In this document: positions 2,082 through 18,127 of the stretch, piece after piece
Position numbering within the stretch: the first letter of the stretch is position 1
Layout of the letters: each line of letters starts with the position of its first letter
Source: Limisphaerales bacterium
Lineage (GTDB): Bacteria > Patescibacteriota > JACMRA01
Direction of reading: 5' to 3'
NCBI GenBank assembly: GCA_044238065.1
Contig: JBIIDY010000001.1
Location: 1-35,133 of the forward strand
Length of the DNA stretch: 35,133 bases
The notes under the pieces: model-generated
Databases searched by the model: none
Seen by the model: only the letters and a program-made list of their open reading frames with translations
What the model was told of the DNA's origin: nothing
Program-made: the position numbers and the translations under genes

Positions 2082-2082
2082 T

Positions 2083-2853
2083 ATGTTATCGCCTGCTCAA
2101 AAATTCATGTTATTAAGGAAAAAAAAGACTGGCTACTCGCCTCTTGATTTGCCTTCAACAACTTATTTGGACGCTAGAATTGGCTCGTCAATTACGATTG
2201 GAACTGGAGTTAGTCAGTGGACTTCTCAAAGCGGTAATGTGAATTATACAGAGGGAACGGGATCTGCTCAAGCTGCTTATAATTTGACTGGATTAGATGG
2301 AAACCCTGCGGTAGTTTTTGATGGAGTGAATGATAGATTGACAGCTACGAGGACTTGTGGAGTTTTTACAAGGATTTTCTTAGTCAAGACTGCTGCGAGT
2401 GGTTTTTTGTTTGGACTTGTGAATGATTATATTTGGACTGGAAGTGGCTCAACTTTTGAGGTAAGTAGAGGTGCTGGTTTTATTTCTGGAAAAAATATAG
2501 CTGGTGGTTGGCTAAATAATAATAAAGCTAAAATTGTGATTTGGAGATTTGACGGCACGCACGCTGGCAATCAAGTTTTGGTTAATGGTGTTTTGAAAAC
2601 TACAACAAACACGTTAGTGGCTAATCCGGGGACTGCGACCGTTACAGCTACTGCTGGACTAATGACAAGGGGCGGAACTGGAACAGGTTATTTAAGTGGT
2701 GCTTTAAGTTATTTTAGAGATTTTGGCTATGTTTTAACCCAAGACCAGATAGACAACGAAGTTAAATTTATTTTATCAAACTTTTTACCAACTGCTAAAC
2801 TAAACTCAAACGGCTTGCCTATTCTGGATGCTAACCAAGATTTAACTTATTAA
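2083..2853 (+). CDS. LamG/concanavalin-like domain protein, paralogue of 1017..2081
   Basis: The motif GLDGNPAVVFDGVNDRLTA aligns with GINGVPAMVSDGVDDQLTF in the upstream ORF. It is joined to that ORF by a taatATG stop-start junction. Confidence 0.55.
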   Translation: MLSPAQKFMLLRKKKTGYSPLDLPSTTYLDARIGSSITIGTGVSQWTSQSGNVNYTEGTGSAQAAYNLTGLDGNPAVVFDGVNDRLTATRTCGVFTRIFLVKTAASGFLFGLVNDYIWTGSGSTFEVSRGAGFISGKNIAGGWLNNNKAKIVIWRFDGTHAGNQVLVNGVLKTTTNTLVANPGTATVTATAGLMTRGGTGTGYLSGALSYFRDFGYVLTQDQIDNEVKFILSNFLPTAKLNSNGLPILDANQDLTY

Positions 2854-2860
2854 AAATAAT

Positions 2861-3139
2861 ATGTTTCTTACCTTTTCTACTGAAAAAACGGCGTTTGAAA
2901 TGCTAACCAAAATCAACCAAAATATGGGAATGCCGATTATTGGAATTGACGCTCAAACTCACTTGCCAGAGCCAAATTGTCAACAGACTTTAAAATGGAA
3001 TAATCTAACAAAAGCCTATAATCAAAATCTTTGGTATTTCCAAAAGCCAGCAGAAGAATATATGGACGGAGTTAGTGGTTATACAGAGCAAGAATTTGAC
3101 CCAAACTGGAGAGAACCTTTTTCACCTAATTTAAATTAA
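2861..3139 (+). CDS. Hypothetical protein (92 aa)
   Basis: Clean ORF, tightly packed between neighbours, with the aatATG start context. Confidence 0.5.
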   Translation: MFLTFSTEKTAFEMLTKINQNMGMPIIGIDAQTHLPEPNCQQTLKWNNLTKAYNQNLWYFQKPAEEYMDGVSGYTEQEFDPNWREPFSPNLN

Positions 3140-3142
3140 AAT

Positions 3143-3943
3143 ATGCCTACTATTATCAACTCAATCCATAAATACCGCCCTCGTGGATCTTGGCGACAAA
3201 GACCAGTTAAAGACATCCAAAAATTAGTAGTTCATCATTCGGCAGCGGACGCCAGCGATAATCCAGAAGCTAGACTAACTCAAATAATGGGTTGGCATTT
3301 GGGAAATAGTCCACAGTGGATGGGCTTGAGTTATCATTATGTAATTACTAAAAATGGTAATATCTACCAAACTAACAATCACGAAGATTTGACTTGGCAC
3401 GACGGGGTAAATACAAACTCTTTGGGAATTTTGGTTGACGGTTATTTTCACGCTCCAAATAATAACCAGCCGACAAGCCAGCAATTGGAAAGTTTAGAAT
3501 TTCTTTTGACTGAATTAGCTACAAAACATCCTGAATTTTCAGCAGGAAATAATCCACTCCAAGATATAGTTGGGCATCGTGACATTGGGCAAACAGCGTG
3601 TCCTGGCGACATTTTATACTCAAAATTAGTGGAAATTAAACAAAGAATTAACCAGAAAATCAAAGACCCACAACCTGCGAAAACACTAGAAATCAAAGAA
3701 ACTGTAAATAGTCAAACTGACAACAGTTCAACAGTTGCTAGAAAATTTGAAAACCAAGATTATCAAAACGCTTGGAATAATAAAGATTATATTTGGTTTG
3801 CTGGAAGTTTGACTGATCGTGACGGCGAAGTTCAAAGACTAAAAGCGGAAGTGGAAACTTGGAAAAACCAAGCCCAAAAAGTGCCAGTCAAAGACCCAAC
3901 TCAAATCAAAAATCTTTTAAATCAAATTTTAAATCTTATCTAG
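3143..3943 (+). CDS. Endolysin, N-acetylmuramoyl-L-alanine amidase (Amidase_2/PGRP fold) with a C-terminal extension
   Basis: Motifs VVHHSA, HYVITKNGNIYQ, GILVDGYF and GHRDIGQTACPG. Small membrane proteins follow immediately. Confidence 0.85.
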   Translation: MPTIINSIHKYRPRGSWRQRPVKDIQKLVVHHSAADASDNPEARLTQIMGWHLGNSPQWMGLSYHYVITKNGNIYQTNNHEDLTWHDGVNTNSLGILVDGYFHAPNNNQPTSQQLESLEFLLTELATKHPEFSAGNNPLQDIVGHRDIGQTACPGDILYSKLVEIKQRINQKIKDPQPAKTLEIKETVNSQTDNSSTVARKFENQDYQNAWNNKDYIWFAGSLTDRDGEVQRLKAEVETWKNQAQKVPVKDPTQIKNLLNQILNLI

Positions 3944-3944
3944 T

Positions 3945-4145
3945 ATGCCTCAAAACACCTCTAAACCTTTCTATTCTAGCAAAATCTTTTGGCTTTCAGT
4001 TTTTAGCTTTTTACTTCTTGGCTTGCCAGTTTTGACACAAGGAAGCTACGAGAATTGGCGAGAAATTGTTTCAACTGTAATTCTTCCAATCATTACTCTA
4101 ATTTTGAGAACCTTTTTCAGTGGGGACAAGTTGACATTAAAATAA
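3945..4145 (+). CDS. Holin-like protein, two predicted TM helices (66 aa)
   Basis: Hydrophobic stretches IFWLSVFSFLLLGLPVL and IVSTVILPIITLILRTFF. A tagtATG junction follows the endolysin gene. Confidence 0.55.
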   Translation: MPQNTSKPFYSSKIFWLSVFSFLLLGLPVLTQGSYENWREIVSTVILPIITLILRTFFSGDKLTLK

Positions 4146-4168
4146 AAATAAAACTCAAAAAAATTATT

Positions 4169-4375
4169 ATGAAAAACTTACACCCTAAATCTGTGCTTGA
4201 CCAGATTATTCGCAAATTAACTGACATTTTTGGCTTGCTTGGCTGTGCCACTGGTTATCTAATCTTTGGAGCTAATTTTTGGGCTGTTTTTGACACAACT
4301 TTGATTGGTTTTTTGATTGGTTGGGGACTTGGTATTTATTGGTTAAGCGACCACGAAAAAGCTAAAAAAAACTAA
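4169..4375 (+). CDS. Small membrane protein (68 aa, two TM), second holin/antiholin candidate
   Basis: The internal ATG at 4169 gives MKNLHPKSVL...GLLGCATGYLIFGANFWAVF...IGFLIGWGLGIYWL. The upstream part of track ORF 4055..4375 overlaps the previous gene and looks non-coding. Confidence 0.5.
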   Translation: MKNLHPKSVLDQIIRKLTDIFGLLGCATGYLIFGANFWAVFDTTLIGFLIGWGLGIYWLSDHEKAKKN

Positions 4376-4409
4376 TTTTTTAATACAAAACTATAATTTT
4401 AATGTAAAT

Positions 4410-4691
4410 ATGGCAAAAAATGACGATGAAAGATTACCAGTCCTTGAAACAAAGGTTGACTATTTGATTGATCTTATAAAAAGTGGCTTTGCTAAAATTG
4501 ACAATGAAATAACAAATTTGAAACAAACTGACGCTGCCAACGAAAAGCAAATAAACGAATTAAAAGGCGAATATAGTTTGACTAAAAGTGATGTTACCAG
4601 AATGAATGCCGTTGTTTGGGTTGTAGTTTCTGCCGTCGTAGTTTTAATTATTGGGGCTTTTTGGGGTAAGTTAACTGGAACTCAACCTTGA
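4410..4691 (+). CDS. Coiled-coil protein with a C-terminal TM anchor (XhlA-like lysis accessory candidate)
   Basis: N-terminal heptad-like region plus the AVVWVVVSAVVVLIIGAFWG tail, within the lysis cassette. Confidence 0.4.
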   Translation: MAKNDDERLPVLETKVDYLIDLIKSGFAKIDNEITNLKQTDAANEKQINELKGEYSLTKSDVTRMNAVVWVVVSAVVVLIIGAFWGKLTGTQP

Positions 4692-4722
4692 CAAAAAAAT
4701 AAATTTGCTTATTTGTGAGTTA

Positions 4723-5286
4723 ATGTCAAACTCAAGCGAAACTCAAGGCAACCAGCAAGGGCAAGATTTGGAGGGTGTAATTTTTATTGAAAATTATTTA
4801 ACCATAACTGAAGCGTCCATTAAGTTTGCCACAAGCGAAACCACAAGCAAGCAAATCAAAGAAATTTTGACTTATGCTAAGGATAAAAACCTAATTAAAT
4901 ATAAGAAAGGGGAAAATAAAACCTCGCCTATTTTGATTGGAGAAAGCGAGATTGAAAATTATTTGGGAGAAAAGCTTAAGCCAAAAATAAGCGAACAAGT
5001 AGCGAACAAGGAAGAAACCCAAGAGCTAAAAACCTTACGGGAAGCTAACGGGAAATTATTGGAAACTTTACGGGAAACTCAAGGGCAAAATAAAGAGTTA
5101 ATAGATTTGCTAAAAATGAAAGAAGAAACTTTACAGAATCAGCAAAAAATAAATTTCACTTTACAAAACAATAATGAAACCCTAAATCTCAAACTTTTAG
5201 AAGAAAAAAAGCCTAAAAATTGGTTATTTAGTTTATTGGCTAGTATTTTTAATTCTAAGCGGAAAAAGCCCCCAAATGATAACTAA
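4723..5286 (+). CDS. Excisionase/MerR-like HTH domain protein with coiled coil and hydrophobic C-terminus (candidate Xis or regulator)
   Basis: ATG at 4723. YLTITEASIKFATSETTSKQIKEIL...ILIGESEIENYL resembles the HTH_17/excisionase pattern. It lies directly upstream of the integrase. Confidence 0.35.
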   Translation: MSNSSETQGNQQGQDLEGVIFIENYLTITEASIKFATSETTSKQIKEILTYAKDKNLIKYKKGENKTSPILIGESEIENYLGEKLKPKISEQVANKEETQELKTLREANGKLLETLRETQGQNKELIDLLKMKEETLQNQQKINFTLQNNNETLNLKLLEEKKPKNWLFSLLASIFNSKRKKPPNDN

Positions 5287-5365
5287 CTCAAAAATGTTTT
5301 TAATGTTTAAAATTCAGTAGTTTATTCAAGCCAGTTTTGAAATTAAGTCAATTTAAAATCAATAC

Positions 5366-5397
5366 GACAAAAGAGCAGATTTTGTCATCTATTTTTT
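5366..5397 (+). terminator. Weak AT-rich hairpin plus T-run after the lysis/Xis-like block
   Basis: gacaaaa-gagcaga-ttttgtc followed by atctatttttt. The stem has only 2 GC pairs. Confidence 0.3.
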
Positions 5398-5416
5398 AGC
5401 TAAAAACAACGTATTT

Positions 5417-6007
5417 ATGAGAAAGTATAATAAAAAGTCAATTCAGTATTTAAATAAATTGGAATTAGAGAATTTTTTCAAAGCAATTTTGGCACAAAAA
5501 AACCAAAAAAAAGCAAAAAGGGATTTTCTAATTTTTAAGATGATTTATTTTCACGCCTTGCGATGCTCGGAGCTTGTCAAAATTAGGTTGACTGATTTGG
5601 ATCTGGAAAATGATAAAATTTATATTGAAGCAACTAAAAAAGGAAAGTTTGGAAATGAGTTTTTGAATCCGATTGAAAAAAATTTGATTTTAGATTATTT
5701 GGAAATTAGACCAGAAGATGAAACTGATTTTTTGTTTGTTTCCAGTGATGGTGGACAAATTGGCAGGCAACACATAAATACTCTTTTTGTAGAATTTTCA
5801 AGCAAAGCTGGAATCAGCGAGAATAAGCGACACCCTCACGTTTTAAGGCATACTTTGGCTGTAAATTGTGCTAATGCTGGTTTTGAGTTAGTTCAGGTTC
5901 AGGCTTTTTTGAGGCACAAATCAAGTAAAACAACGGAAATTTATTTTCAAATTTTGGAAGAAACAAAGTTGGAATTACAGCGTGAAGCTTTTCTAAAGTT
6001 GAGTTAA
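5417..6007 (+). CDS. int: Tyrosine recombinase/integrase, minimal 196-aa form (Xer-like, no arm-binding domain)
   Basis: Catalytic signature R (ALRCSEL), H-x-x-R (HPHVLRHTLA), H (FLRHKSS) and Y (TTEIY). Confidence 0.85.
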   Translation: MRKYNKKSIQYLNKLELENFFKAILAQKNQKKAKRDFLIFKMIYFHALRCSELVKIRLTDLDLENDKIYIEATKKGKFGNEFLNPIEKNLILDYLEIRPEDETDFLFVSSDGGQIGRQHINTLFVEFSSKAGISENKRHPHVLRHTLAVNCANAGFELVQVQAFLRHKSSKTTEIYFQILEETKLELQREAFLKLS

Positions 6008-6008
6008 T

Positions 6009-6038
6009 TTGACAAAAATCTAGTTTTTATCTTATTTA
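6009..6038 (+). promoter_or_regulatory. Candidate sigma70-type promoter for the HU gene
   Basis: TTGACA at 6009-6014, an 18-nt spacer, then TATTTA at 6033-6038. The ATG lies 25 nt downstream. Confidence 0.35.
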
Positions 6039-6062
6039 AATTTAATTATTTTACTAAAAATT

Positions 6063-6356
6063 ATGTCCACTCAAAAAATCAATCGCACCGAGTTTGTCAA
6101 TCAATTAGCATCCAAACTTGGAATTACCAAAATCAAAGCTGAAGAAATTTTATTTGTTTTTACTGAAATTATTACCGAAAATCTAGTTAATGGAATTGAA
6201 GTCAACCTTACTGGTTTTGGAGTTTTTAAGCAAGTTGTCCGCAGTGAAAGGGATGGCGTGAATCCAAAAACTGGTGCTAAAATGAAAATCAAAGCTAGCA
6301 AAGGCGTGGCGTTTAGAGCTGGTAAAAACTTTAAAGAGGCTGTAAAGAATAGTTAG
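6063..6356 (+). CDS. HU/IHF-family DNA-binding protein
   Basis: Full-length HU pattern: GFGVFKQVVRSERDGVNPKTGAKMKIKASKGVAFRAGKNFKEAV. Confidence 0.9.
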   Translation: MSTQKINRTEFVNQLASKLGITKIKAEEILFVFTEIITENLVNGIEVNLTGFGVFKQVVRSERDGVNPKTGAKMKIKASKGVAFRAGKNFKEAVKNS

Positions 6357-6371
6357 TTTAATTTTGGCAAT

Positions 6372-6397
6372 AAAAAAGCCCCCTAGAGGGGTTTGAT
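6372..6397. terminator. Bidirectional intrinsic terminator between convergent genes
   Basis: A-run, cccc-ctaga-gggg hairpin, then a T-rich tail. It sits between the HU stop (6356) and the stop of minus-strand gene 6416..6919. Confidence 0.6.
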
Positions 6398-6415
6398 TAT
6401 TTGGTTTTGTGGTTA

Positions 6416-6919
6416 TTAAATTTTGGAAAGTTCTTTGAGAAAAACTTCACAGAACTGGTTAGCTCCGTCAACTAACATTGGGTTTTTACCTTTGAATTGA
6501 TGTAAAGTTTTTTTGATAATTTTGTCCAGTTTATTTTGACTGATCGGTGCGTCCGCTTTTTTGACTGGAATTTCTTTTTTGATTTCAATTATTTTGACAT
6601 TTTTACCATCAATTGGGTTGTATTTTTGGTCAAGGAAACAAACTCCGCCAAAATCGTAAAGAACGGTGGCAAGGGTTTTCGCATCTGGTTTTTCTCCAAA
6701 TAGGAATTTAGGTAAATCTCCGACTTCGCTAACATTTGCCATAAAAACAGGCTTGTCAGGATTTTGTTGACAATAGGTTTTAAGATTTTCAAGGACGGTG
6801 TGATAATCTGCCAAGACTTCGGGAGTGATGTCAGCAAGATATTTTTGAATTTGTTGGGCTTTTTCAAGCTCTTCTTTGGCTTTTTGACGGTTGAGTATTT
6901 TTTGCTCTTTGAGTTTCAT
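6416..6919 (-). CDS. Hypothetical protein (167 aa)
   Basis: Long ORF with K/E-rich composition like other genes here. It is bracketed by hairpin terminators on both sides. Confidence 0.6.
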   Translation of the reverse strand: MKLKEQKILNRQKAKEELEKAQQIQKYLADITPEVLADYHTVLENLKTYCQQNPDKPVFMANVSEVGDLPKFLFGEKPDAKTLATVLYDFGGVCFLDQKYNPIDGKNVKIIEIKKEIPVKKADAPISQNKLDKIIKKTLHQFKGKNPMLVDGANQFCEVFLKELSKI

Positions 6920-6934
6920 AATTTTACTTATAAA

Positions 6935-6971
6935 TAAAAAAAGTCAGTTTGGAAACTTGACTAGGTTTTTT
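6935..6971. terminator. Hairpin flanked by an A-run and a T-run inside the leftward operon
   Basis: aaaaaa-agtcagtttggaaacttgact-agg-tttttt. On the minus strand it reads as a stem followed by T7. Confidence 0.45.
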
Positions 6972-6973
6972 GA

Positions 6974-7363
6974 TTATTTCAATAAATTTTCTAAAATTTC
7001 CACTAGCTCGGTCAAAACCGTTTCAGGGTCTTGGTCAAAGAGTGGTAAAATAAGCCTGCCATTTAAATCGTGAGTTAAGCAAAGATTTTTCTTTTCAAAT
7101 TTATCCGCTTTAATTCCCAAAACATCCTGCAAACTAACTAAGATTTGACGGAGTTGTGGGGCTTGGATTGCTAGGCAGCATTCATCTAAGAATTTTTGCC
7201 AGTTTTCTTTGCCCATTACCTCCATTTTTTCAGTTGCTAGAAAAAGTCCTTTTTGTGGGTGGTTTTGCCAATTTCCTATAACCTCAACCTTCAAACCAAA
7301 TTTTTGGTTGATTTTTGGTAAAAGCTCGTGGATTTTTTGGGTTAAATTGTATGAGTTAGACAT
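6974..7363 (-). CDS. Hypothetical protein (129 aa)
   Basis: Clean ORF in the leftward operon; no recognisable motif. Confidence 0.55.
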   Translation of the reverse strand: MSNSYNLTQKIHELLPKINQKFGLKVEVIGNWQNHPQKGLFLATEKMEVMGKENWQKFLDECCLAIQAPQLRQILVSLQDVLGIKADKFEKKNLCLTHDLNGRLILPLFDQDPETVLTELVEILENLLK

Positions 7364-7632
7364 TTTGATAATGATAAGGTTGAAAAAGATTGGTTATTTT
7401 TGTCCCCCTCCTCAGGATCATCAATCAAATTTTCATCTGGTCGTTTGAGTAGGGTTGGAGTTTCATATTCTATTTCAAAAAACTCCGGGTAATCCCAAAA
7501 TTTGTAATCTAAGAAAGAGCCATCTTTTCTCATTTTAGAATTTAAATTATCTCCTGCATATCTTCCAAGCGATATTTCTAAACTAGGGAAGTCTTTAATA
7601 ATTGTAATTGATTTGATTTTTTGAGTGGACAT
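7342..7632 (-). CDS. Hypothetical protein (96 aa)
   Basis: Clean ORF with a 22-nt overlap onto the downstream gene. Confidence 0.5.
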   Translation of the reverse strand: MSTQKIKSITIIKDFPSLEISLGRYAGDNLNSKMRKDGSFLDYKFWDYPEFFEIEYETPTLLKRPDENLIDDPEEGDKNNQSFSTLSLSKCLTHTI

Positions 7633-7642
7633 AAAAAAAAGA

Positions 7643-8023
7643 TTATTTTAAAAGTTCTGGGTTTGTGAATTTGTTGCCAATTATTTCTTGTTTGGAAAAA
7701 TTAAAGGCGTTTATGTAGTCAGTTTCGTTTTTATTTATTGCGAAAAAACAAGCCCTCTCTTTAATAAAGACTACAAGGAATGTTTCTTTGTGATTTTTAA
7801 AGAAATCACCCTCAAAAATTTCCACTCCATTTTTGTCAAGAAGTCCTGTGGATTGCATTAGCTCCACTTCTCCAATGTTGTCAATATTTCTTGACCTATT
7901 ATTGCTTCTAAAAACAAGGGCAGGGAATCCTAAAACATCTATTATTTCGGGATTATTATAATCATCAAAATAAATCATTGTTTTGTTAGTTGTATCCCAA
8001 GCACGGAATTTTGAAATTTGCAT
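7643..8023 (-). CDS. YopX-family phage protein
   Basis: The N-terminus MQISKFRAWDTTNKTMIYFDD and the later GVEIFEGD are typical of YopX. Confidence 0.7.
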   Translation of the reverse strand: MQISKFRAWDTTNKTMIYFDDYNNPEIIDVLGFPALVFRSNNRSRNIDNIGEVELMQSTGLLDKNGVEIFEGDFFKNHKETFLVVFIKERACFFAINKNETDYINAFNFSKQEIIGNKFTNPELLK

Positions 8024-8052
8024 AAATGGTAAATGTAAAAAGTTAAAAAAGA

Positions 8053-8856
8053 TTATTTTGAAAAAATTGGGTTAAAATTGGTTTGTAAAATAGTGGACAA
8101 ATTTTGGCGGTAATTTGTGTCTGTGGCGTATCTTTTGCCTACTCCTCCGCAGATTTTTGAACCTTGACGAACTTGGCGAAAATCTCGGTCAAATAGCTTT
8201 TGGGTTGAGATTATTTCCCTCTCGTGAAAATGGCAAGAGGTCATATAATGAATATACAAGGCAAGCCCGTTTTGGTAATCGTTAAGGCAAATGCTGCTGC
8301 CATCTTGACAATCTGTAGCCTTTGTATCGCCAGCGTCTACATTGCCTATATTCCAACAGTTTTTAGTCTGGACGGCTCGTCCGTTAGTGCAAAAATGACT
8401 TTCTGCGTGAGCTTGAATTAAAATCAAATCTAGTGGAAAATTGGTTTTTTGAGCTAAATTTACAAGCATTTCAGGATCAAGCGGGCTTTCAGCTTTTTGA
8501 TACTTTTTGATATATTCTTTGGTTTTAGCTATTAAATCTGCTTTGTTTTCGTTGGTTACAAAAACACCAATTTCATCAATTCTAGGTTGACTTTTTAGCT
8601 CCTCTTTTTTTGGTTCGGGATCGTTTTTGATTTCCAAATTTGGGGTCTGTTCGGTTGGTTTTTCTACTATTTGATTTTCTAGTGGAATTGTTTTTTTGGT
8701 ATCTCTAAAGATTTCTACTTTGCCAGAATTGGCGTTATAGCCTTGTTGGTTAGCTAGATTGTCCATAAAACCTGTAAAGGGTAAAATGAAAATTAAAGCG
8801 AAAATAAAGAGTGTGAGACCCTTGCCTGAATTGTTTTTTGTGTTTGTGTTTGACAT
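8053..8856 (-). CDS. Membrane-anchored, Cys-rich glucosaminidase (GH73/FlgJ-like) candidate
   Basis: N-terminal TM (LTLFIFALIFILPFTGF). The C-terminal LILIQAHAESHFCTNGRAVQTKNCWNIGNV ... YQNGLALYIHYM resembles the glucosaminidase core. Confidence 0.4.
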   Translation of the reverse strand: MSNTNTKNNSGKGLTLFIFALIFILPFTGFMDNLANQQGYNANSGKVEIFRDTKKTIPLENQIVEKPTEQTPNLEIKNDPEPKKEELKSQPRIDEIGVFVTNENKADLIAKTKEYIKKYQKAESPLDPEMLVNLAQKTNFPLDLILIQAHAESHFCTNGRAVQTKNCWNIGNVDAGDTKATDCQDGSSICLNDYQNGLALYIHYMTSCHFHEREIISTQKLFDRDFRQVRQGSKICGGVGKRYATDTNYRQNLSTILQTNFNPIFSK

Positions 8857-10518: not shown

Positions 10519-10818
10519 TTAGCTAAGTTTGATTTTTAGATTTTCTCTAAAAGCTATTTCTAGTGATTTAAAATAATTGATAAGTTTGGCTTGATAGATT
10601 GGGACTAGGTCTGATTGGATTTCTTTGAGTATTAAAAAGTGTGACATTAAATACTCTTCTGTTTGAGTTGCTAAAAAAGCATTGACTTCAATTAGATTTG
10701 GTAGATTTTCAAAGCTAGAATAAGTAAAGTCTTCACGCCAGTTTTTGAATTGCCAAAAATAAGAAAGAAAAGTTTTTGCTTGACAGAATTTAGTTTGTTG
10801 TGTAGTATGTGAATACAT
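10519..10818 (-). CDS. Hypothetical protein, first gene of the leftward operon (99 aa)
   Basis: Clean ORF abutting the divergent control region. Confidence 0.5.
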   Translation of the reverse strand: MYSHTTQQTKFCQAKTFLSYFWQFKNWREDFTYSSFENLPNLIEVNAFLATQTEEYLMSHFLILKEIQSDLVPIYQAKLINYFKSLEIAFRENLKIKLS

Positions 10819-11011
10819 ATTTTGGAAAAAATATTTTTAAAAAAGATTTGAGGTTGGAGCCTCTTTTTTTGTTGCGAAAAATTATTGAGGTTGCATGGGC
10901 AAGATTTATAAAGGTTTGAAAAGTTGGCTGTAAAGCTATTAGTTTTTATTGCTAAATTACTAATAAATATATTATAAATTATTTTTTAAATAGTGTCAAG
11001 GAAATTTTCTT

Positions 11012-11125
11012 GTTAATACTTTTTTCTTGATAAAATAGACTTTTTTTTAATAACATTTTTATATTTTCCCCAAAATAAACTTGACAAAATTAGATAAAAT
11101 TAACTTTTTGAGTTAATACTTTTTT
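11012..11125. repeat. Two copies of the 14-bp box gttaatactttttt, exactly 100 bp apart, in the divergent control region
   Basis: Copies at 11012-11025 and 11112-11125, read directly. Confidence 0.7.
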
Positions 11126-11139
11126 ACTATTACAAAAAT

Positions 11140-11475
11140 ATGCCAGATAACTCACAACCAAACTCACAGAATACGCCTTCAGGAAATCAAACATATCCAA
11201 ATCCACAAAACTATAATCCGACTATTGTAATCAATAACAGTGCCACTGCTAACGCAAACGGTGGGGGTTCTTTTCCAGTAAAGTCAAAAATGGTAACACT
11301 GATTGTTTGTATTTTATTTGGTTGGGCTGGTTTTCATAGATTTTATACTGGACATGTGATAGTTGGTTTGTTATATATGTTTAGTTTTGGAATGTTGGGG
11401 ATTGGCTGGGCTTTAGATACTCTTTGGATTTTGCTTGGATCATTTAAAGATGCGAATGGACAACTTTTGAAATAA
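11140..11475 (+). CDS. TM2-domain membrane protein
   Basis: LFGWAGFHRFYTGHVIVGLLYMFSFGMLGIGWALD is the TM2 signature. The N-terminus is N/Q/P-rich. Confidence 0.85.
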   Translation: MPDNSQPNSQNTPSGNQTYPNPQNYNPTIVINNSATANANGGGSFPVKSKMVTLIVCILFGWAGFHRFYTGHVIVGLLYMFSFGMLGIGWALDTLWILLGSFKDANGQLLK

Positions 11476-11492: not shown

Positions 11493-11567
11493 ATGAACTT
11501 ACTAACGCTAATTTTTGGCTATTTTTTTTCAATTAGCTTTTTACTTTTTTATTTTTTAGATTTATGA
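11493..11567 (+). CDS. Possible 24-aa hydrophobic micropeptide (MNLLTLIFGYFFSISFLLFYFLDL)
   Basis: Not in the ORF track (too short). It has an ATG and an ATGA stop-start overlap with the nuclease gene. Confidence 0.25.
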   Translation: MNLLTLIFGYFFSISFLLFYFLDL

Positions 11568-12685
11568 AGTTTTTAAAGTCTGTTTTACTTTTTATGTTTG
11601 CTTTTTATAAAGCGATTTGGATTTGGTTTTTGAGACTACCCCGAGCGGGTAAATTTTTGGTTGGAATTTTTTTGATTTTTGCTGTTGCGATAAGTAGTTT
11701 GGCAAATTCTGGACAAAAAAGCGAAGCCAATGGCGTCAAAAGTGCTAATTTATCATCAAATTCCAGTCAAAAATCTAGTAGTTCCAGTGAAAATTTGGCA
11801 AATAATAGTGAAAATAGTGAAAAATTTAGCGAAAATTTAGCAAAATCAACGAAAACATCACAAGAAACGGCAGAAAATCAAAAAAATTTCATAATTTCCA
11901 GTCAAAAAAGCCTACTAAGCATTGCTGAGGAGCCTATAAAAAGCACCGTAGCTAATACCGACGAGGCTATAAAAAGCGTCCTAAGTAATACTGAGGATGC
12001 TATAAAAACAGATAGTGCAAAATTGGCACAAACTCAAAACAAGAAACTTTACCAAATTTTAGAAGTCGTGGACGGCGATACAGTCAAGGTTAATGAAATT
12101 GGAGCTTTGAGATTAATTGGAATTGACACGCCTGAAACCAAAGATCCAAGAAAGGTCGTTCAGTGTTTTGGAGTGGAGGCAAGTAATAATGCCAAAAATC
12201 TTTTGAGTGGACAAAAAGTCTATTTGGAATATGATGAAAGTAAATCTAAAACTGATAAATATGGACGAACTTTGGCTTATGTTTTTCGTGAAGATGGTTA
12301 TTTTTACAATTTAGAGGCCGTGAGAAATGGTTTTGCTCATTCTTACCGTGAATATTCGCACCCAAAACTAGATGAATTTAATCTGGCAGAAAAACAAGCG
12401 AGGGATGGTAAGGTTGGATTTTGGGCAGATAATACTTGTCAAGGAAATACAACGCAAGGCGTGGCAGGAGAAGTAGCCAAAGCAACAGTTCCGCCGATAG
12501 GTGGAACCCAAGAAAAAGCGGTGGAAAAACCAGTGGAGCAAGTAGCTAGTGGAATTATCAAAAAGTCAACAGCTGGTATTTGCCATGATACAAGTTCCAA
12601 ATCTTACGAGAGAACAAAAAACTTTACCCCTTTTAATACAATGGAAGAGTGTTTGGCAAGTGGTGGCAGATTGCCTTTAAATTAG
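11564..12685 (+). CDS. Membrane-anchored staphylococcal-type (SNase/thermonuclease) nuclease with a Ser-rich repeat linker and a Cys-containing C-terminal domain
   Basis: N-terminal TM. Core VVDGDTVKV...LRLIGIDTPETKDPRK...DKYGRTLAYVF...EAVRNGFAH. Confidence 0.85.
   Translation: MKFLKSVLLFMFAFYKAIWIWFLRLPRAGKFLVGIFLIFAVAISSLANSGQKSEANGVKSANLSSNSSQKSSSSSENLANNSENSEKFSENLAKSTKTSQETAENQKNFIISSQKSLLSIAEEPIKSTVANTDEAIKSVLSNTEDAIKTDSAKLAQTQNKKLYQILEVVDGDTVKVNEIGALRLIGIDTPETKDPRKVVQCFGVEASNNAKNLLSGQKVYLEYDESKSKTDKYGRTLAYVFREDGYFYNLEAVRNGFAHSYREYSHPKLDEFNLAEKQARDGKVGFWADNTCQGNTTQGVAGEVAKATVPPIGGTQEKAVEKPVEQVASGIIKKSTAGICHDTSSKSYERTKNFTPFNTMEECLASGGRLPLN
11927..12025 (+). repeat. 3 x 33-nt imperfect tandem repeat inside the nuclease linker
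   Basis: Units start at 11927, 11960 and 11993, each containing gc(c/t)ataaaaa. They encode E-x-x-IKS-x-x-x-NT-type 11-aa repeats. Confidence 0.7.
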
Positions 12686-12715
12686 CGTGCCAAGTTGTGT
12701 CAGTTTGTCACGGGT

Positions 12716-12798
12716 GTGATTACCTAAAAAGCGATAAAATAACAATTTCCCAGCGTTGGGAAAACATAACTATAAAATCTTTTTAGGTGATTACCTAA
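12716..12798. repeat. Two copies of gtgattacctaa, 71 bp apart, flanking the hairpin tttccca-gcgt-tgggaaa
   Basis: Copies at 12716-12727 and 12787-12798; hairpin at 12746-12763. Confidence 0.65.
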
Positions 12799-12822
12799 TA
12801 TGGTAGTGTTGTAAAGGGCACT

Positions 12823-12926
12823 GAATAGACAATTTAGCACTGCTTTTTACAATGATTTGACAACTAAAAATATCTATTTAATCAGTAAAAAACCCCACAA
12901 TGAATAGACAGAGAATAGACAATTTA
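12823..12926. repeat. Three copies of GAATAGACA (two extended to gaatagacaattta): operator or iteron-like boxes
   Basis: Copies at 12823-12836, 12902-12910 and 12913-12926, all in the same orientation. Confidence 0.7.
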
Positions 12927-13009
12927 CAATAGATTCCTAATGTCAGGAAAGCGATCAATTTCGGTGTGTACCGAATATGGTCAAAGATACGATTTTTTCG
13001 TATAGTTGG

Positions 13010-13038
13010 TTGACAAATTCTTATATTTTGGGTAAAAA
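13010..13038 (+). promoter_or_regulatory. Sigma70-type promoter positioned for a leaderless transcript of the 42-aa ORF
   Basis: TTGACA (13010-13015), a 17-nt spacer, then TAAAAA (13033-13038). There are exactly 6 nt before the ATG at 13045. Confidence 0.45.
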
Positions 13039-13044
13039 ATTGAT

Positions 13045-13173
13045 ATGTCCAGATTTGCTAAAGTCAAAAAATGCCTAAAAAGAAAGGCTATTAAAAAAAC
13101 TAGAAAAACTAAAATTACTCTACAAAATGGACTTTATAAAAAAGTTTTTGATTATCAATGGAGTTTGTCTTGA
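13045..13173 (+). CDS. Possible 42-aa highly basic protein (MSRFAKVKKCLKRKAIKKTRKTKITLQNGLYKKVFDYQWSLS)
   Basis: Translated by hand; below the ORF-track size cut-off. A promoter lies immediately upstream, and the ORF ends 6 nt before the next promoter. Confidence 0.3.
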   Translation: MSRFAKVKKCLKRKAIKKTRKTKITLQNGLYKKVFDYQWSLS

Positions 13174-13178
13174 TTTTC

Positions 13179-13207
13179 TTGACAAGTTTTGTAATTTTAT
13201 TTATAAT
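13179..13207 (+). promoter_or_regulatory. Perfect consensus sigma70 promoter (TTGACA-17 nt-TATAAT)
   Basis: TTGACA at 13179-13184, spacer agttttgtaattttatt (17 nt), TATAAT at 13202-13207. Confidence 0.7.
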
Positions 13208-13268
13208 ATATTTATTGACATCTGGAAAATCTATGGAATCAGCATAGAAATTCTTTAAAATATAAATG

Positions 13269-13298
13269 TTGACAAATTATAAAAAGTCAGTTTATATT
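13269..13298 (+). promoter_or_regulatory. Second strong sigma70-type promoter
   Basis: TTGACA at 13269-13274, an 18-nt spacer, TATATT at 13293-13298. Confidence 0.55.
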
Positions 13299-13304
13299 TA
13301 AACA

Positions 13305-13369
13305 CCTGATAAAACAGGCACAAACTACCAAGTTTGCGATTTCTCCCTACTGATTCTAGGGAGTTTTTG
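13305..13369 (+). ncRNA. Candidate 65-nt structured RNA or attenuating leader upstream of the antirepressor gene
   Basis: Runs from the predicted TSS near 13305 to the terminator. Hairpins are cctg-ataaaa-cagg, caaact-acca-agtttg, and ctcccta-ctgattc-tagggag followed by T5. Confidence 0.35.
13343..13369 (+). terminator. Intrinsic terminator in the antirepressor leader
   Basis: 7-bp stem ctcccta/tagggag, 7-nt loop, then tttttgt. It lies 115 nt upstream of the ATG at 13485. Confidence 0.6.
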
Positions 13370-13484
13370 TCGTCTGGACTTTTTCTGGACAAAAAAAAGA
13401 ACCCTCTAAAAGAGAGAACAAACCTTGTAAGTTGTTTTCATTTTAGCATAGAAAATTCACCTTGTCAAGTAATTTTTTATAGCT

Positions 13485-14369
13485 ATGTCTACTCTACACT
13501 CTGAGGCTCAAATTTCTGTTGCCTCCAATTCGCAAAGCCCTTTTGAGCTTATCAAAAAAACAAATTCTGCAGGTTTTGAAATCTGGTCAGCTCGGGAACT
13601 CCAAAAAGTTTTAGAATATTCAACTTGGCAAAAATTTGAAAAAGCAATTTTGGCAGTCAAAGAAGAATTTGAGTTTGAAAATTTGGGTTTATCAGCAAAC
13701 TTTGATTTAACCTATCGGGCAAGTCAATCTGGTAAAAATACTGTCAAACAAATTACAGACTACGAACTCTCACGCTTTTTTTGCTACAAATTAGCAATGC
13801 GAGGCGAAACTGATGCTTGTAAAAAATCAAGGACTTATTTTGCCGTCCAGACTAGAAAACAAGAATTAGCACCCACTCCGCAACCCACAGCACCAAAATC
13901 TTTTTCAATTAAGGAACTTTTGGAACAAAATCAAAATTGGCTTTTCAAACTTTCCAAAGAAGTTGAAACTCTAAAAATTGAAGTTGAAACCAAAGACAAC
14001 ACCATTTCCAATTTAACTCCCAAAGCTGATTTTGTAGATAATGTTTTGGTAAAAGGTAATACTGGATTGACTGCGATGTCCATAGTCGCCAAAGAAATGG
14101 GACTTGGTTCAGTCAGGCTTTACAAAATACTTAGAGATGAGAAAATTTGGTTTTGGGCTTTGAACGAACACGGCGTCAATGAAAATAATGTCAAGCAAGA
14201 TTATATTGATAATGGTAGTTTTGTGGTCAAGGCTTTTTATAGCGAGCGAGACAAAAGAACTTATGATAAAATTTTTGCCACAAACAAAGGCAAATTGCTT
14301 TGTTATAAAATCGTCAAAGAAAATACTCCAAGTTTTGAGATTAAATTGATTGAAAACAGTCAAAAATAG
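13485..14369 (+). CDS. Antirepressor: DinD-like N-terminal domain plus KilAC C-terminal domain
   Basis: N-terminus FELIKKTNSAGFEIWSARELQKVLEYSTWQKFEKAI (DinD-like). C-terminus LTPKADFVDNVLVKGNTGLTAMSIVAKEMGLGSVRLYKILRDEKIWF (KilAC-like). Confidence 0.75.
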   Translation: MSTLHSEAQISVASNSQSPFELIKKTNSAGFEIWSARELQKVLEYSTWQKFEKAILAVKEEFEFENLGLSANFDLTYRASQSGKNTVKQITDYELSRFFCYKLAMRGETDACKKSRTYFAVQTRKQELAPTPQPTAPKSFSIKELLEQNQNWLFKLSKEVETLKIEVETKDNTISNLTPKADFVDNVLVKGNTGLTAMSIVAKEMGLGSVRLYKILRDEKIWFWALNEHGVNENNVKQDYIDNGSFVVKAFYSERDKRTYDKIFATNKGKLLCYKIVKENTPSFEIKLIENSQK

Positions 14370-14486: not shown

Positions 14487-14612
14487 ATGTCAACAGACCA
14501 AATTTATTTAAAAAATCTCAAAAAATTAGTCAAGACACTTCGTGCTATGAAAGAATTGGATAAGGAAAAAACCAGAGAGTTGATTGAGGTTATTTTACTT
14601 CTATTAAATTAA
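14487..14612 (+). CDS. Possible 41-aa protein (MSTDQIYLKNLKKLVKTLRAMKELDKEKTRELIEVILLLLN)
   Basis: Hand-translated, with an ATG in the usual AT-rich context. It overlaps the 3' end of convergent gene 14590..15183 by 23 nt. Confidence 0.2.
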   Translation: MSTDQIYLKNLKKLVKTLRAMKELDKEKTRELIEVILLLLN

Positions 14613-15183
14613 ACTTCTTTTTAATTATCTCCAAGACAGCCCTTTGATCTAACCACTGGAACATTTGCTCTATTACAAACTCTTCGTCAAGTTTTCCCAG
14701 TTTTCGTTGGTCAAAGGGATAAACTGCCATAACTTCTCTACCATCACTGGTAGTTATTTTTTCTCTATATTTTAAAGACCATTTTTTACTTGCTTCAATT
14801 AGGGATTTATAAAGCTCCACATCTAGCAAAAAAACCTTGTCGTTAAGAGTTCTAAACCTGCCCTTATCAATCAGTCTTTTGATTTTAGTTCCAGCACCAA
14901 CGCCAAAATTAAGAACTTTTACCCCAGCATTGTATTTGGTTATAAATAATGGAATTTGGTTTAATTTTTCCTTGTCAAATAAAGAAAAACCCAAAGCATT
15001 TTCATCCGTTGGCATCTGCTCCATAAAATTACGGATTGTAAAATAAGTATCCCAGAAATTGCCATCATCAATTTCAATATCTGCGATGCTTTGTGATAAG
15101 TTTGTCATAGATAAAATATAGTTTTGTATAAATTTTGCCTTATGTTTTAATGAAATTTTGGGCAGTTGTTTTTGTTGTAGCAT
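14590..15183 (-). CDS. Hypothetical protein (197 aa); lone leftward gene inside the rightward block
   Basis: Long clean ORF with its own candidate promoter and long non-coding regions on both sides. No recognisable motif. Confidence 0.6.
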   Translation of the reverse strand: MLQQKQLPKISLKHKAKFIQNYILSMTNLSQSIADIEIDDGNFWDTYFTIRNFMEQMPTDENALGFSLFDKEKLNQIPLFITKYNAGVKVLNFGVGAGTKIKRLIDKGRFRTLNDKVFLLDVELYKSLIEASKKWSLKYREKITTSDGREVMAVYPFDQRKLGKLDEEFVIEQMFQWLDQRAVLEIIKKKFNLIEVK

Positions 15184-17172: not shown

Positions 17173-17486
17173 TAAACAAAAAAACAATCGCAGAACTTTT
17201 GGGAATGGAAATGCCAAAACCAAAATTTATCAAAGAAGTTAAAATTCGTATCAAACAAGCTAAAATACTCACACCAGAGCAAAAAGCAATGAAAAATAAA
17301 GCCAATGCCGAATGGGCAAGGAAAAAAAGGGCGACTGACCCTGAATATAGAAAAAGGGCAACCGAAGCCAAAAGAAAATATATGGCAAAAGTAATGGCTG
17401 ACCCAATTCGTAGAAAAAAATATAATGAAACCCAGAGAAAAAATATGGCAAAATATAATCAAAAAAAACTTTTACAAACAGCTTAA
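17169..17486 (+). CDS. Highly basic K/R-rich repeat protein (105 aa), probable nucleic-acid binder
   Basis: Repeated DP-x-(Y/I)R(K/R)... RK(Y/N)MAK motifs. ATGA overlap with the upstream gene. Confidence 0.5.
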   Translation: MINKKTIAELLGMEMPKPKFIKEVKIRIKQAKILTPEQKAMKNKANAEWARKKRATDPEYRKRATEAKRKYMAKVMADPIRRKKYNETQRKNMAKYNQKKLLQTA

Positions 17487-17498
17487 TAATTCCAAATT

Positions 17499-17717
17499 AT
17501 GATCAATCAAGGCAAACCAAACATCGCCCAAGTCTTGGGTAAAAACTACAAACCACCAAGACCAAAAACACCAACAAAGCCAAAAGAAAAGCCAAAATGC
17601 CCGTTCTGTGGATCGCAAAATTCCAGACAGAAAAACGAAACAATTTTTAGGAAATGTAAAGATTGTCAACAACTTTTTATAACTCCAAACTCTTTTTTTA
17701 AAAATAAAAAATTCTAG
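17499..17717 (+). CDS. Basic zinc-ribbon protein (72 aa)
   Basis: CPFCGS ... CKDC, i.e. CxxC-N16-CxxC, with a K/P-rich N-terminus. Confidence 0.55.
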   Translation: MINQGKPNIAQVLGKNYKPPRPKTPTKPKEKPKCPFCGSQNSRQKNETIFRKCKDCQQLFITPNSFFKNKKF

Positions 17718-17867
17718 TTATTATCTAATTTATCATATTTTCTCTATGTTCACAAAAAATTACTTGACAAGAAATTTAAAAAGTTTCTTAATACTACCAG
17801 ATGTTAAGTGTAGTAAGAAGGAAAGCCTTACTAGACTTAATGTCTCTGGCGTTCTGCGTCAGCAAAT

Positions 17868-17900
17868 CCCCCTTGTAGCTTTCCACAGGGGGGCTTTTGT
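17868..17900 (+). terminator. Plus-strand intrinsic terminator ending the accessory operon
   Basis: ccccc(t)tgt-agctttcc-aca-ggggg followed by cttttgtcgtt. Two further hairpins precede it at 17811-17833 and 17846-17862. Confidence 0.55.
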
Positions 17901-17946
17901 CGTTCCCAATTATCTAAAAAACTTATATGTCAGATCCACCAAACGC

Positions 17947-17971
17947 AAAAAAACGAGCCCTGAGAAGCTCG
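17947..17971 (-). terminator. Canonical minus-strand intrinsic terminator
   Basis: The minus strand reads cgagc-ttctcagg-gctcg followed by T7 (17953-17947). Confidence 0.65.
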
Positions 17972-17997
17972 CAAAATCAAGATTTAAGAAATTATTC
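17947..17997 (-). ncRNA. Candidate small RNA of about 50 nt (countertranscript or oop-like) upstream of the replication gene
   Basis: Runs from the predicted TSS near 17997 (6 nt after the -10) to the T7 tract. Predicted RNA: GAAUAAUUUCUUAAAUCUUGAUUUUGCGAGCUUCUCAGGGCUCGUUUUUUU. Confidence 0.5.
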
Positions 17998-18003
17998 AAT
18001 CAC

Positions 18004-18032
18004 ATTATATCACAGATTCAACTATTCGTCAA
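18004..18032 (-). promoter_or_regulatory. Near-perfect extended -10 sigma70 promoter on the minus strand
   Basis: The minus strand reads TTGACG (18032-18027), a 17-nt spacer ending in TGa, then TATAAT (18009-18004). Confidence 0.65.
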
Positions 18033-18127
18033 GGGAATTTTTGAGAATGTCAGTTTTAAGCCAAAAAGTCCTGTTTTTTAAAATCAGGCAAACTCTTTTT
18101 ATTTAAATCTTATCTCAAATTATTAGT

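Follow-up and report, generated by a model that had tools for sequence, protein, structure and literature searches.

A conserved block upstream of phage antirepressor genes carries covarying RNA loop pairs and may act as an RNA-based switch

Background

What does the gap preceding the antirepressor gene (ant) of an uncultivated phage encode, and could RNA alone account for the control of that gene? The gap in question (12686-13484) lies in a stretch of 35,133 nucleotides of contig JBIIDY010000001.1 (the whole stretch analysed, hereafter the window), which is apparently a complete temperate phage genome of ~35 kb. It is bounded by a staphylococcal-nuclease-like (SNase) gene (11564-12685) and by an ANT/KilAC antirepressor gene (13485-14369). 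An original prediction, made from the letters of the DNA, had described this gap as a single regulatory hub with repeats, boxes, hairpins, promoters and a terminator, and all of these, as well as the gap itself, were recovered in place or a few bases away. Comparing the gap with its relatives, we report that its right-hand part, the block 13174-13470, is a genuine conserved regulatory region in which the loops of two predicted hairpins, A and T, change together.

To our knowledge, RNA control of antirepressors has been described in only a handful of classical enterobacterial phages (P1/P7 c4, P22 sar, P4/N15-type RNAs), and we know of almost nothing on lysogeny control in phages of the Candidate Phyla Radiation (CPR)/Patescibacteria, to which the host of the phage described here probably belongs.

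A conserved block upstream of differing antirepressor genes

The block 13174-13470 was found directly upstream of differing antirepressor genes in 17 further loci, falling into three sequence families, and the genuine relatives were all reached by exact-protein look-ups. They include an identical contig (L001), a 92% identical one (L002), the syntenic phages L004, L010 and L012/L013, and genome fragments with a readable block (L016, L017, L019-L023 and L025) that are elsewhere 94-99% identical, together with diverged copies of the block in L003, L026 and L027. No relative was confirmed by scans of IMG/VR seeded with the ANT and SNase proteins, and exact DNA pattern scans of IMG/VR gave no true copy of the block. 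The same held for DNA pattern scans of JGI metagenome contigs (one rRNA chance match, L009) and of GTDB genomes (two chance matches). The elements of the block and its neighbouring gene, as predicted in the window, are the following.

13179..13207, plus strand: promoter P1, TTGACA-17-TATAAT, matching the consensus at 12/12 positions
13230..13248, plus strand: hairpin A, TCTATG[GAATCAG]CATAGA, with a 7-nt loop (13236-13242) proposed as the target, or "lock"
13258..13299, plus strand: hairpin P, the P2 promoter region folded as a long hairpin in P1 transcripts, with an apex dyad TTGAC-N12-GTCA (RNAfold and RNAalifold predictions)
13269..13298, plus strand: promoter P2, TTGACA-18-TATATT, matching the consensus at 11/12 positions
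13305-13318, plus strand: hairpin S1, CCTG-ATAAAA-CAGG, part of the small RNA (sRNA) body 13305..13338
13319-13338, plus strand: hairpin B, CACAAACT-ACCA-AGTTTGCG, part of the same sRNA body
13343..13370, plus strand: intrinsic terminator T, CTCCCTA[CTGATTC]TAGGGAG followed by TTTTTGT, with its stem-loop at 13343-13363 and its loop, the "key", at 13350-13356
13372..13398, plus strand: hairpin M, GTCTGGA-CTTTT-TCTGGAC, then an A8 run able to pair with the U-run of T; a structure of read-through RNA
13391..13416, minus strand: terminator Tm, CTCTCT-TTT-AGAGGG followed by TTCTTTTTTTT, with its hairpin at 13402-13416 and a U-run after it on the minus strand
13417..13436, minus strand: hairpin or dyad H5, AACAAAC-cttgtaa-GTTGTT, of variable sequence
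13440..13468, minus strand: promoter Pm, TTGACA-17-TGcTAAAAT with an extended -10, convergent on P1 and P2
13485..14369, plus strand: antirepressor gene ant, with a Bro-N-like N-terminus and a KilAC/ANT C-terminus (Pfam ANT, E = 4e-11)

All copies share the order P1, hairpin A, P2, hairpins S1 and B, terminator T, hairpin M and, on the minus strand, Tm and Pm. The gap holds a real regulatory region, and P1, P2 and T are retained in every relative across the three diverged families. The hexamers of P1, P2 and Pm are kept throughout and their spacers diverge, the -35 element of P2 being invariant and its -10 element present but weaker in the other families. Promoter-like sequences of this quality are rare in the window: TTGACA-N17-TATAAT with at most one mismatch occurs at 4 sites over 35 kb, against 0.49 expected (4 sites were reached in 0/100 shuffles), and two of the four fall inside the gap. 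Sequence variation across the block is concentrated in the loops of A, B and T, in the stem of M and in H5.

The block constantly adjoins an ant-type gene or an ant remnant, the N-terminal domains of which vary (Bro-N, KilA-N or other), and its edge coincides exactly with the start of ant genes having different N-terminal domains. The presumed regulated output of the block is ant. In L003, the diverged block precedes only a truncated remnant of the window-type ant open reading frame (ORF).

Two hairpin loops that change together

In the window, the 7-nt loops of A (13236-13242) and T (13350-13356) are exact reverse complements of each other, a feature that lay beyond the original prediction, as did Pm (13468-13440) and Tm (13416-13391). 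Across the 18 loci and the three stem families, ten distinct A/T loop pairs were found, all complementary over 7 nt except the L019 type.

Window: A loop GAATCAG, T loop CTGATTC
L002: A loop TTCAGAG, T loop CTCTGAA
L004: A loop TTAGTGG, T loop CCACTAA
L010, L016, L021, L023: A loop TTACGAG, T loop CTCGTAA
L012: A loop GATCTAG, T loop CTAGATC
L017: A loop TTAGAGG, T loop CCTCTAA
L019, L020, L022, L025: A loop ATCGAGC, T loop GCTCGAAT (6 contiguous pairs and a bulge)
L003: A loop GTGAAAG, T loop CTTTCAC (drifted stems)
L026: A loop GTACTAG, T loop CTAGTAC (drifted stems)
L027: A loop GTATCAG, T loop CTGATAC (drifted stems)

Among relatives of the window family, the stems stay constant and the two loops change jointly. 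In a five-sequence alignment, the loop-loop helix was Watson-Crick in 35/35 cells, with 6/7 pairs changed on both sides, and all five measures computed for the whole six-helix structure were reached by 0/500 shuffles; slid registers paired at 25-45%. Cognate loops form 6-7 contiguous pairs and non-cognate loops 2-5. A geometry search for a hairpin followed downstream by a terminator with a complementary loop, run over 812 kb, recovered every block with a full 7-nt loop match and, besides these, just 3 poor, A/T-rich chance matches.

The clearest case is provided by L016 and L019, which are 98.6% identical over 11.6 kb, yet carry the A loops TTACGAG and ATCGAGC and differ at most loop positions in both partners. 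Such hypervariability confined to the loops speaks for selection on specificity and hence for a trans-acting function. Altogether, this covariation shows the predicted A and T loops to be in a selected RNA-RNA contact. Neither H5 nor the B loop covaried with the A/T loops, the window and L012 having the same H5 and different loops. The sequence TGGAATCAG (the A loop plus two flanking bases) at 5809-5817, inside the integrase gene, was considered as a second target and is probably a chance occurrence, since relatives have no equivalent integrase site for their own loops.

Plus-strand hairpins and predicted RNAs

From sequence, P1 would start transcription near 13214, and its product would be either a ~156-nt RNA that stops at T or the leader portion of ant mRNA; P2 would start near 13304 and yield a ~66-nt sRNA. 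The P2-to-T RNA (folding z = -3.8) comprises the three hairpins S1, B and T, each with compensatory changes, and the P1-to-T RNA (z = -3.5) has hairpins A and P in addition. The original prediction had proposed RNAs of ~155 and ~65 nt with a common terminator upstream of ant, and a search for covariation in related phages; such covariation was found in S1, B, P and T, and fits these two putative RNAs. S1 becomes CCGC/GCGG in L012 and GCTTG/CGAGC in L003. B becomes CAAAT/ATTTG in L012, and a 10-nt insertion is restricted to its loop. P shows a coupled A>G and T>C change in L010 and a U-G to C-G change in L012, although its TTGAC-N12-GTCA dyad, invariant in all families, could equally well be a DNA operator.

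The stem of A is invariant in the window family and is replaced by CTTTTG/CAAAAG in L003 and by TCTTGT/ACAAGA in L026/L027. By sequence, T has the traits of an intrinsic (Rho-independent) terminator: a stem of 7 bp, 4 of them G-C, a loop of 7 nt and the tail TTTTTGT. Its stem is ACCCATCA/TGGTGGGT in L003 and ACCACTCC/GGGGTGGT in L026/L027, and the T-run after it is retained in all copies. Beyond T, 5/8 pairs of hairpin M are changed on both sides, and its G-U pairs would be lost on the minus strand, where they read as C-A mismatches. M is thus kept by compensatory changes as a plus-strand hairpin located past the terminator, which argues that the read-through RNA is itself under selection.

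G-U pairs valid only on the plus strand also occur in the T stems of L003 and of L026/L027, in the extended A stem of L003 and in hairpin P. Together with a pair of Tm that reads as G-U in minus-strand RNA but as C-A in plus-strand RNA in 4/4 versions (window, L004, L003 and L026/L027), these patterns identify A, T and M as plus-strand RNA structures and Tm as a minus-strand terminator. Comparison of the sequences shows that the predicted plus-strand RNAs of the block fold into A, P, S1, B, T and M.

Candidate coding sequences within the block were discarded. A mini-ORF (ATG-N9-TAG) contained in hairpin A is absent from L003, L026 and L027 and results incidentally from the sequence of the stem; a minus-strand ORF (13255-13392) and a hydrophobic ORF (13127-13258) are broken in relatives by loop insertions or by the block boundary.

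A minus-strand unit facing the terminator

The hexamers of Pm and its TGc extension are kept over a different spacer in L012, L003, L011 and L026/L027, and T and Tm face each other without overlap. This conservation, with the strand-specific pair of Tm, shows that a putative convergent minus-strand unit, made of a promoter and a terminator, faces T. Transcription would start near 13433 and give a predicted ~43-nt RNA (about 13433-13391), antisense to the ant leader. H5, probably the 5' hairpin of this minus-strand RNA, also covaries (AATC/GATT, TAATC/GATTA, TATC/GATA, AAGTG/CACTT, GAAT/ATTC), and its pairs, all Watson-Crick, fit either strand.

Another TTGACA is located at 13215-13220, just past the -10 element of P1 and within ATTGACATCT (~711-716 in L026), and is kept in the window and L026/L027 families. 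No matching -10 element lies downstream of it; it may be a signal of the initially transcribed region (e.g. a sigma-dependent pause) or an operator.

Proposed mechanism

Is the block, then, an RNA-based control cassette for ant, in which a P2-derived sRNA kisses hairpin A and thereby sets termination at T? We regard this as an evenly balanced proposition. Under such a mechanism, P2 would produce the ~66-nt sRNA (S1-B-T), devoid of A and always ending at T, whereas A would be carried on transcripts from P1 or from farther upstream. In cis, A would pair with the emerging T loop and 3' arm and disturb the terminator, so that RNA polymerase would read through M and the leader into ant. In line with this, a long-range A:T conformer that destroys T is computed to lie 0-3.3 kcal/mol from the minimum free energy in all ten variants, and is the minimum itself in L012, L026 and L027. 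Once accumulated, the sRNA would kiss A in trans by loop-loop contact, leaving T free to terminate and ant off. As only matching loops would work, the cassette would be a determinant of immunity specificity: a prophage would silence the ant of a phage with the same loops, not that of a phage with different loops. Pm would add a second layer: its ~43-nt RNA (H5 and Tm) would act as antisense against the ant leader, and/or transcription from Pm would collide with polymerases that have passed T.

Several points weigh against this scheme. The start sites, the termination at T and both small RNAs are predictions, and the promoter and terminator rules of the probable CPR host are not established. 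No CI-type, helix-turn-helix or ribbon-helix-helix (RHH) repressor, i.e. no target for Ant, was recognisable among the 30 window ORFs scanned. Kissing may lower termination at T or raise it. Transcripts from P2 do not contain A, and any of them that leaked past T would express ant whatever the state of the switch. Because no G-U occurs among the loop-loop pairs (35 cells), their strict complementarity would, taken alone, also be compatible with a cause at the DNA level. Pairing of the A arms with the T arms beyond the 7 nt did not stand out from random-stem controls (p = 0.065, 0.13 and 0.25); in folding, cognate A/T modules had little advantage over chimeric ones. Lastly, no second target resembling A was present downstream in the window, L016, L017 or L019, unlike in c4 and CI.

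A broader claim is that the block is a self/non-self switch built from RNA alone, of a hitherto undescribed kind, in which the sRNA's own terminator loop is the key and at least 10 orthogonal 7-nt pairs, present as a library in natural phage populations of uncultivated hosts, define heteroimmunity groups; we advance it tentatively, with somewhat less confidence than the cassette itself. If it holds, a key that kisses an upstream hairpin would decide the read-through of the same terminator sequence in longer transcripts. The logic of the enterobacterial systems would then have evolved independently, from different parts, in phages probably infecting CPR/Patescibacteria, which would thereby gain their first characterised regulatory RNA system. 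The covariation, with its ten orthogonal 7-nt pairs and three unrelated sets of stems, is so clean that the mechanism is directly testable by reporter assays or in vitro termination. The loops could also sort uncultivated phages into immunity groups from sequence alone, and natural orthogonal pairs of kissing loop and terminator would make a ready parts list for synthetic riboregulators.

Alternative explanations

The best surviving alternative, which we nevertheless consider unlikely, confines the A-T contact to a single molecule, where it would be a tertiary contact within the ant leader or another way of folding it (e.g. an attenuator, or a pseudoknot that stabilises it), with neither a trans-acting sRNA nor an immunity role. 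A and T do lie on one P1 transcript, 114-128 nt apart, and the A-loop sequence recurs nowhere else consistently in the genomes examined. The long-range A:T fold mentioned above is also nearly isoenergetic with the local hairpins. A purely intramolecular contact, however, gives no reason for ten loop replacements in flanks that stay 85-100% identical, and it leaves the RNA from P2, a promoter kept in all families, with a T loop and no A, and so in need of a role of its own.

Less likely again is that the Pm antisense RNA is the main regulator, in the manner of sar or of a plasmid countertranscript, and that A-T kissing stabilises or sequesters the plus-strand sRNA (e.g. with the P1 RNA as a sponge), the real target of which would lie in the host or in another phage. 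Pm is the best conserved of the promoters, with its extended -10 and with hexamers that persist although the spacers differ. Tm clearly belongs to the minus strand, and H5 varies among relatives independently of the loops. Yet the predicted minus-strand RNA (about 13433-13391) stops short of the ant start codon at 13485 and, because T and Tm face without overlapping, it shares no sequence with the plus-strand sRNA. Moreover, a 7-nt seed for an external target would leave the exact co-variation of A unexplained, and no external target was found.

A DNA-level origin, in which the loops would be 7-bp inverted repeats used by a recombinase (inverting the P2 segment) or by a DNA-binding protein, would suit the strictly Watson-Crick loop pairs (0 G-U in 35 cells), the tyrosine recombinase gene at 5417-6007 and the fact that tyrosine recombinases require core/spacer identity between partner sites, but is highly improbable, as the arms flanking the cores are unrelated (TCTATG/CATAGA vs CTCCCTA/TAGGGAG) and could not both be bound by one recombinase, 18/18 assembled copies have the same orientation, the stems contain strand-specific G-U pairs, the T-run after T is conserved, and no neighbouring protein varies with the loops, the same ant N-terminus occurring with different loops.

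Comparison with known regulatory RNAs

The logic of the proposed cassette matches that of known ant-control RNAs but its construction differs, and the block belongs to none of C4, P4 CI or sar. No Rfam family, C4 included, matched at its gathering score in the whole window. Permissive searches, with E up to 10 for 12500-13700 and up to 5 for the L026 and L003 blocks, returned only weak matches (ctRNA_pND324 with E = 4.4, snoRNAs and similar), dismissed as unrelated.

In P1, tandem promoters lie upstream of c4. The c4 RNA of P1/P7 (immI: c4-icd-ant) is a small RNA encoded just upstream of ant on the same strand, which represses ant via short complementary loops, and coupled changes in this RNA and its target lead to heteroimmunity between close relatives (PMC12197685). 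Likewise, the block stands upstream of ant on the same strand in 18 loci, where it would control ant, and close relatives differ by coupled loop changes (ten covarying pairs), from which heteroimmunity would follow. The c4 RNA is excised from the ant transcript, there being no separate promoter and terminator for it, and it relies on two sequence pairs and on a downstream target over the ribosome-binding site (in part PMC12197685). By contrast, the block has a predicted promoter (P2) and terminator (T) of its own, its recognition element is the loop of this intrinsic terminator, and in place of the a'/a2 and b'/b2 pairs it uses one 7-nt pair with the target hairpin ~110 nt upstream of the T loop and no copy of the A loop in the ant leader.

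The P4 CI RNA (seqA/seqB/seqC) is a leader-derived immunity RNA that pairs within its own transcription unit and decides premature termination (summarised in PMC4825925). The block resembles it in pairing with a complementary sequence of the same transcription unit, with a putative effect on termination. CI, however, is a processing product with targets both upstream (seqA) and downstream (seqC) and controls replication genes, whereas the block has the upstream partner A only and an intrinsic terminator whose own loop is the pairing element.

The P22 sar RNA (immI) is transcribed from a convergent promoter in the ant leader region and is antisense to the ant mRNA (PMC12197685). The original prediction had likened the gap to P22 immI, and the comparison is apt in logic, extending even to a convergent sar-like antisense promoter: the layout of Pm and Tm, with a predicted minus-strand RNA within the region upstream of ant, is that of sar. 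The neighbouring genes differ: no arc- or mnt-like gene flanks the block in the window, although RHH genes lie close to it in L003. Furthermore, sar pairs with the ant translation start, whereas the predicted Pm RNA stops overlapping the leader about 50 nt before the ATG.

In IsrK of the Gifsy-1 prophage, a downstream phage regulator is controlled by a short isoform that ends at an intrinsic terminator and works in trans on the read-through form of the RNA (PMC4825925). IsrK is thus an earlier example of a short, terminated RNA with an effect on the long isoform of its own locus, but it activates translation of the long isoform, from one promoter, and has neither a covarying kissing-loop pair nor a family of orthogonal specificities.

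Plasmid antisense systems (ColE1 RNA I/RNA II; pT181 and pIP501 countertranscripts; IncB/IncIα RNAI versus an activating pseudoknot) use 7-nt kissing loops or attenuation. Their loops are fully complementary, a cis fold competes with the trans RNA, and the outcome is termination or downstream expression. In these systems the regulator lies on the strand opposite its target and complementarity is automatic, whereas A and T are encoded at separate positions of one strand and need selection to stay complementary.

The left half of the gap

The view of the gap as one hub did not survive the comparison. Its repeated boxes and its 42-amino-acid (aa) ORF are optional cassettes, the ORF being replaced in L004 and absent from L010 and L017; as optional parts, neither is needed for the control of ant. 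Boxes are missing from relatives that keep ant, which the promoter-terminator core never is. The features of this half are listed below.

12736..12763, minus strand: terminator-like hairpin TTTCCCA-ACGC-TGGGAAA with a T-rich tail, read on the plus strand as TTTCCCA-GCGT-TGGGAAA at 12746-12763, between the two 12-mers GTGATTACCTAA
12766..12945, no strand assigned: optional cassette with three GAATAGACA boxes, bracketed by two TTCGGT..ACCGAA-type palindromes
12960-12975, no strand assigned: palindrome TTCGGT-GTGT-ACCGAA, conserved in the window family
12987-13003, no strand assigned: palindrome ATACGA-TTTTT-TCGTAT, conserved in the window family
13010-13038, plus strand: promoter TTGACA-17-TAAAAA, 6 nt before the ATG of the 42-aa ORF
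13045-13173, plus strand: very basic 42-aa ORF, in the optional cargo cassette 13010..13173

Within the window, GTGATTACCTAA occurs at 12716 and 12787 only, and GAATAGACA at 12823, 12902 and 12913, all on the plus strand, and nowhere else. The box cassette is present in the window, L002, L016, L017, L023 and L025, partial in L004 and absent from L010, and the second copy of GTGATTACCTAA, which coincides with the diverged left palindrome TTAGGT-GATT-ACCTAA (12783-12798), is absent from L002, L017 and others. Both kinds of box were consequently rejected as required parts. Between the SNase gene and P1, several scaffolds among L018-L023 and L025 are interrupted by a gap of 100 N that falls precisely on the repeated TTCGGT..ACCGAA palindromes, where the assembly probably broke on population variation or on the repeat itself. 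Owing to these gaps, absence of the box cassette is not trustworthy in those scaffolds, and is so in the gap-free L010.

The hairpin at 12746-12763 keeps its stem in relatives and varies in its loop (GCGT vs GAGG), and its minus-strand form (12736-12763) would keep leftward transcription out of the SNase gene. Candidate protein operators are the two palindromes (12960-12975 and 12987-13003), placed just upstream of whichever promoter follows.

The 42-aa ORF is identical in L002 and absent from most relatives. A 44-aa version in L003 (3813-3944) sits at another genomic position, before a DUF3800 gene, and shares with it 77% amino-acid and about 75% DNA identity (9 synonymous and 12 non-synonymous codon differences), this frame being the only one open. 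From this comparison, the ORF is probably a real small gene, and it reads as cargo, not as a part of the switch. The slot between the ATACGA..TCGTAT palindrome and P1 holds an N6/N4 DNA methyltransferase gene in L004 (4804-5676) and is empty in L010 and L017; 13010-13173 behaves as a cargo (moron) site.

Phage genome, probable host and neighbouring genes

The window encodes a terminase, tail genes, an amidase endolysin, a Rad52-type recombinase, a small tyrosine integrase (5417-6007) and an HU protein (6063-6356). It has no tRNA or tmRNA genes, and no phage deposited in INPHARED matched it by blastn. The phage HU is 75% identical to an HU found in a cellular context (TsaD, PriA, UppS, SSB and DNA ligase; L028-L037) in the same metagenome series, and its named homologues come from Parcubacteria/Patescibacteria. 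On these two grounds, the host is probably a Patescibacteria (CPR) bacterium, from which the HU gene was probably captured.

No Shine-Dalgarno-like sequence was present upstream of any of the 48 window ORFs examined. A/T-rich stretches precede the window genes, and the promoters still fit the sigma-70 TTGACA/TATAAT consensus. Two near-perfect sites of this type lie outside the gap.

10971-10999, minus strand: near-perfect sigma-70-type promoter (12/12 match), heading a leftward operon of recombination genes (Rad52-type recombinase, YopX)
18004-18032, minus strand: near-perfect sigma-70-type promoter, one of the 4 such sites of the window

The former and the rightward TM2/SNase/ant unit lie on either side of 10818-11140, facing each other. 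In the window, ant is followed immediately, in opposite orientation, by a 197-aa gene of unrecognised family (14590-15183, minus strand). The same slot in relatives (e.g. 17301-18121, minus strand, in L016) holds a 112-aa gene together with an M78 (ImmA/IrrE-like) peptidase gene and/or a 186-aa gene. This downstream module is exchangeable and is possibly the repressor side of the circuit.

The diverged block of L003 is surrounded (1552-8386) by toxin-antitoxin-type genes (RelB/YafQ, PemK, HicA), two RHH genes and a second KilA-N/ANT gene. A Phage_pRha (antirepressor-like) gene in L026 and L027 is preceded by a second conserved non-coding leader (2895-3410 and 2600-3125, respectively), which is unrelated to the block, measures ~450-500 nt and carries a P1-like promoter. 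Its long-range stems show compensatory changes (GAGAATAGACAGG...TTCTATTCTC vs GAGAGTAGAAAG...CTTTCTACTTTC), and one arm of a stem contains GAGAATAGACA, the box motif of the window.

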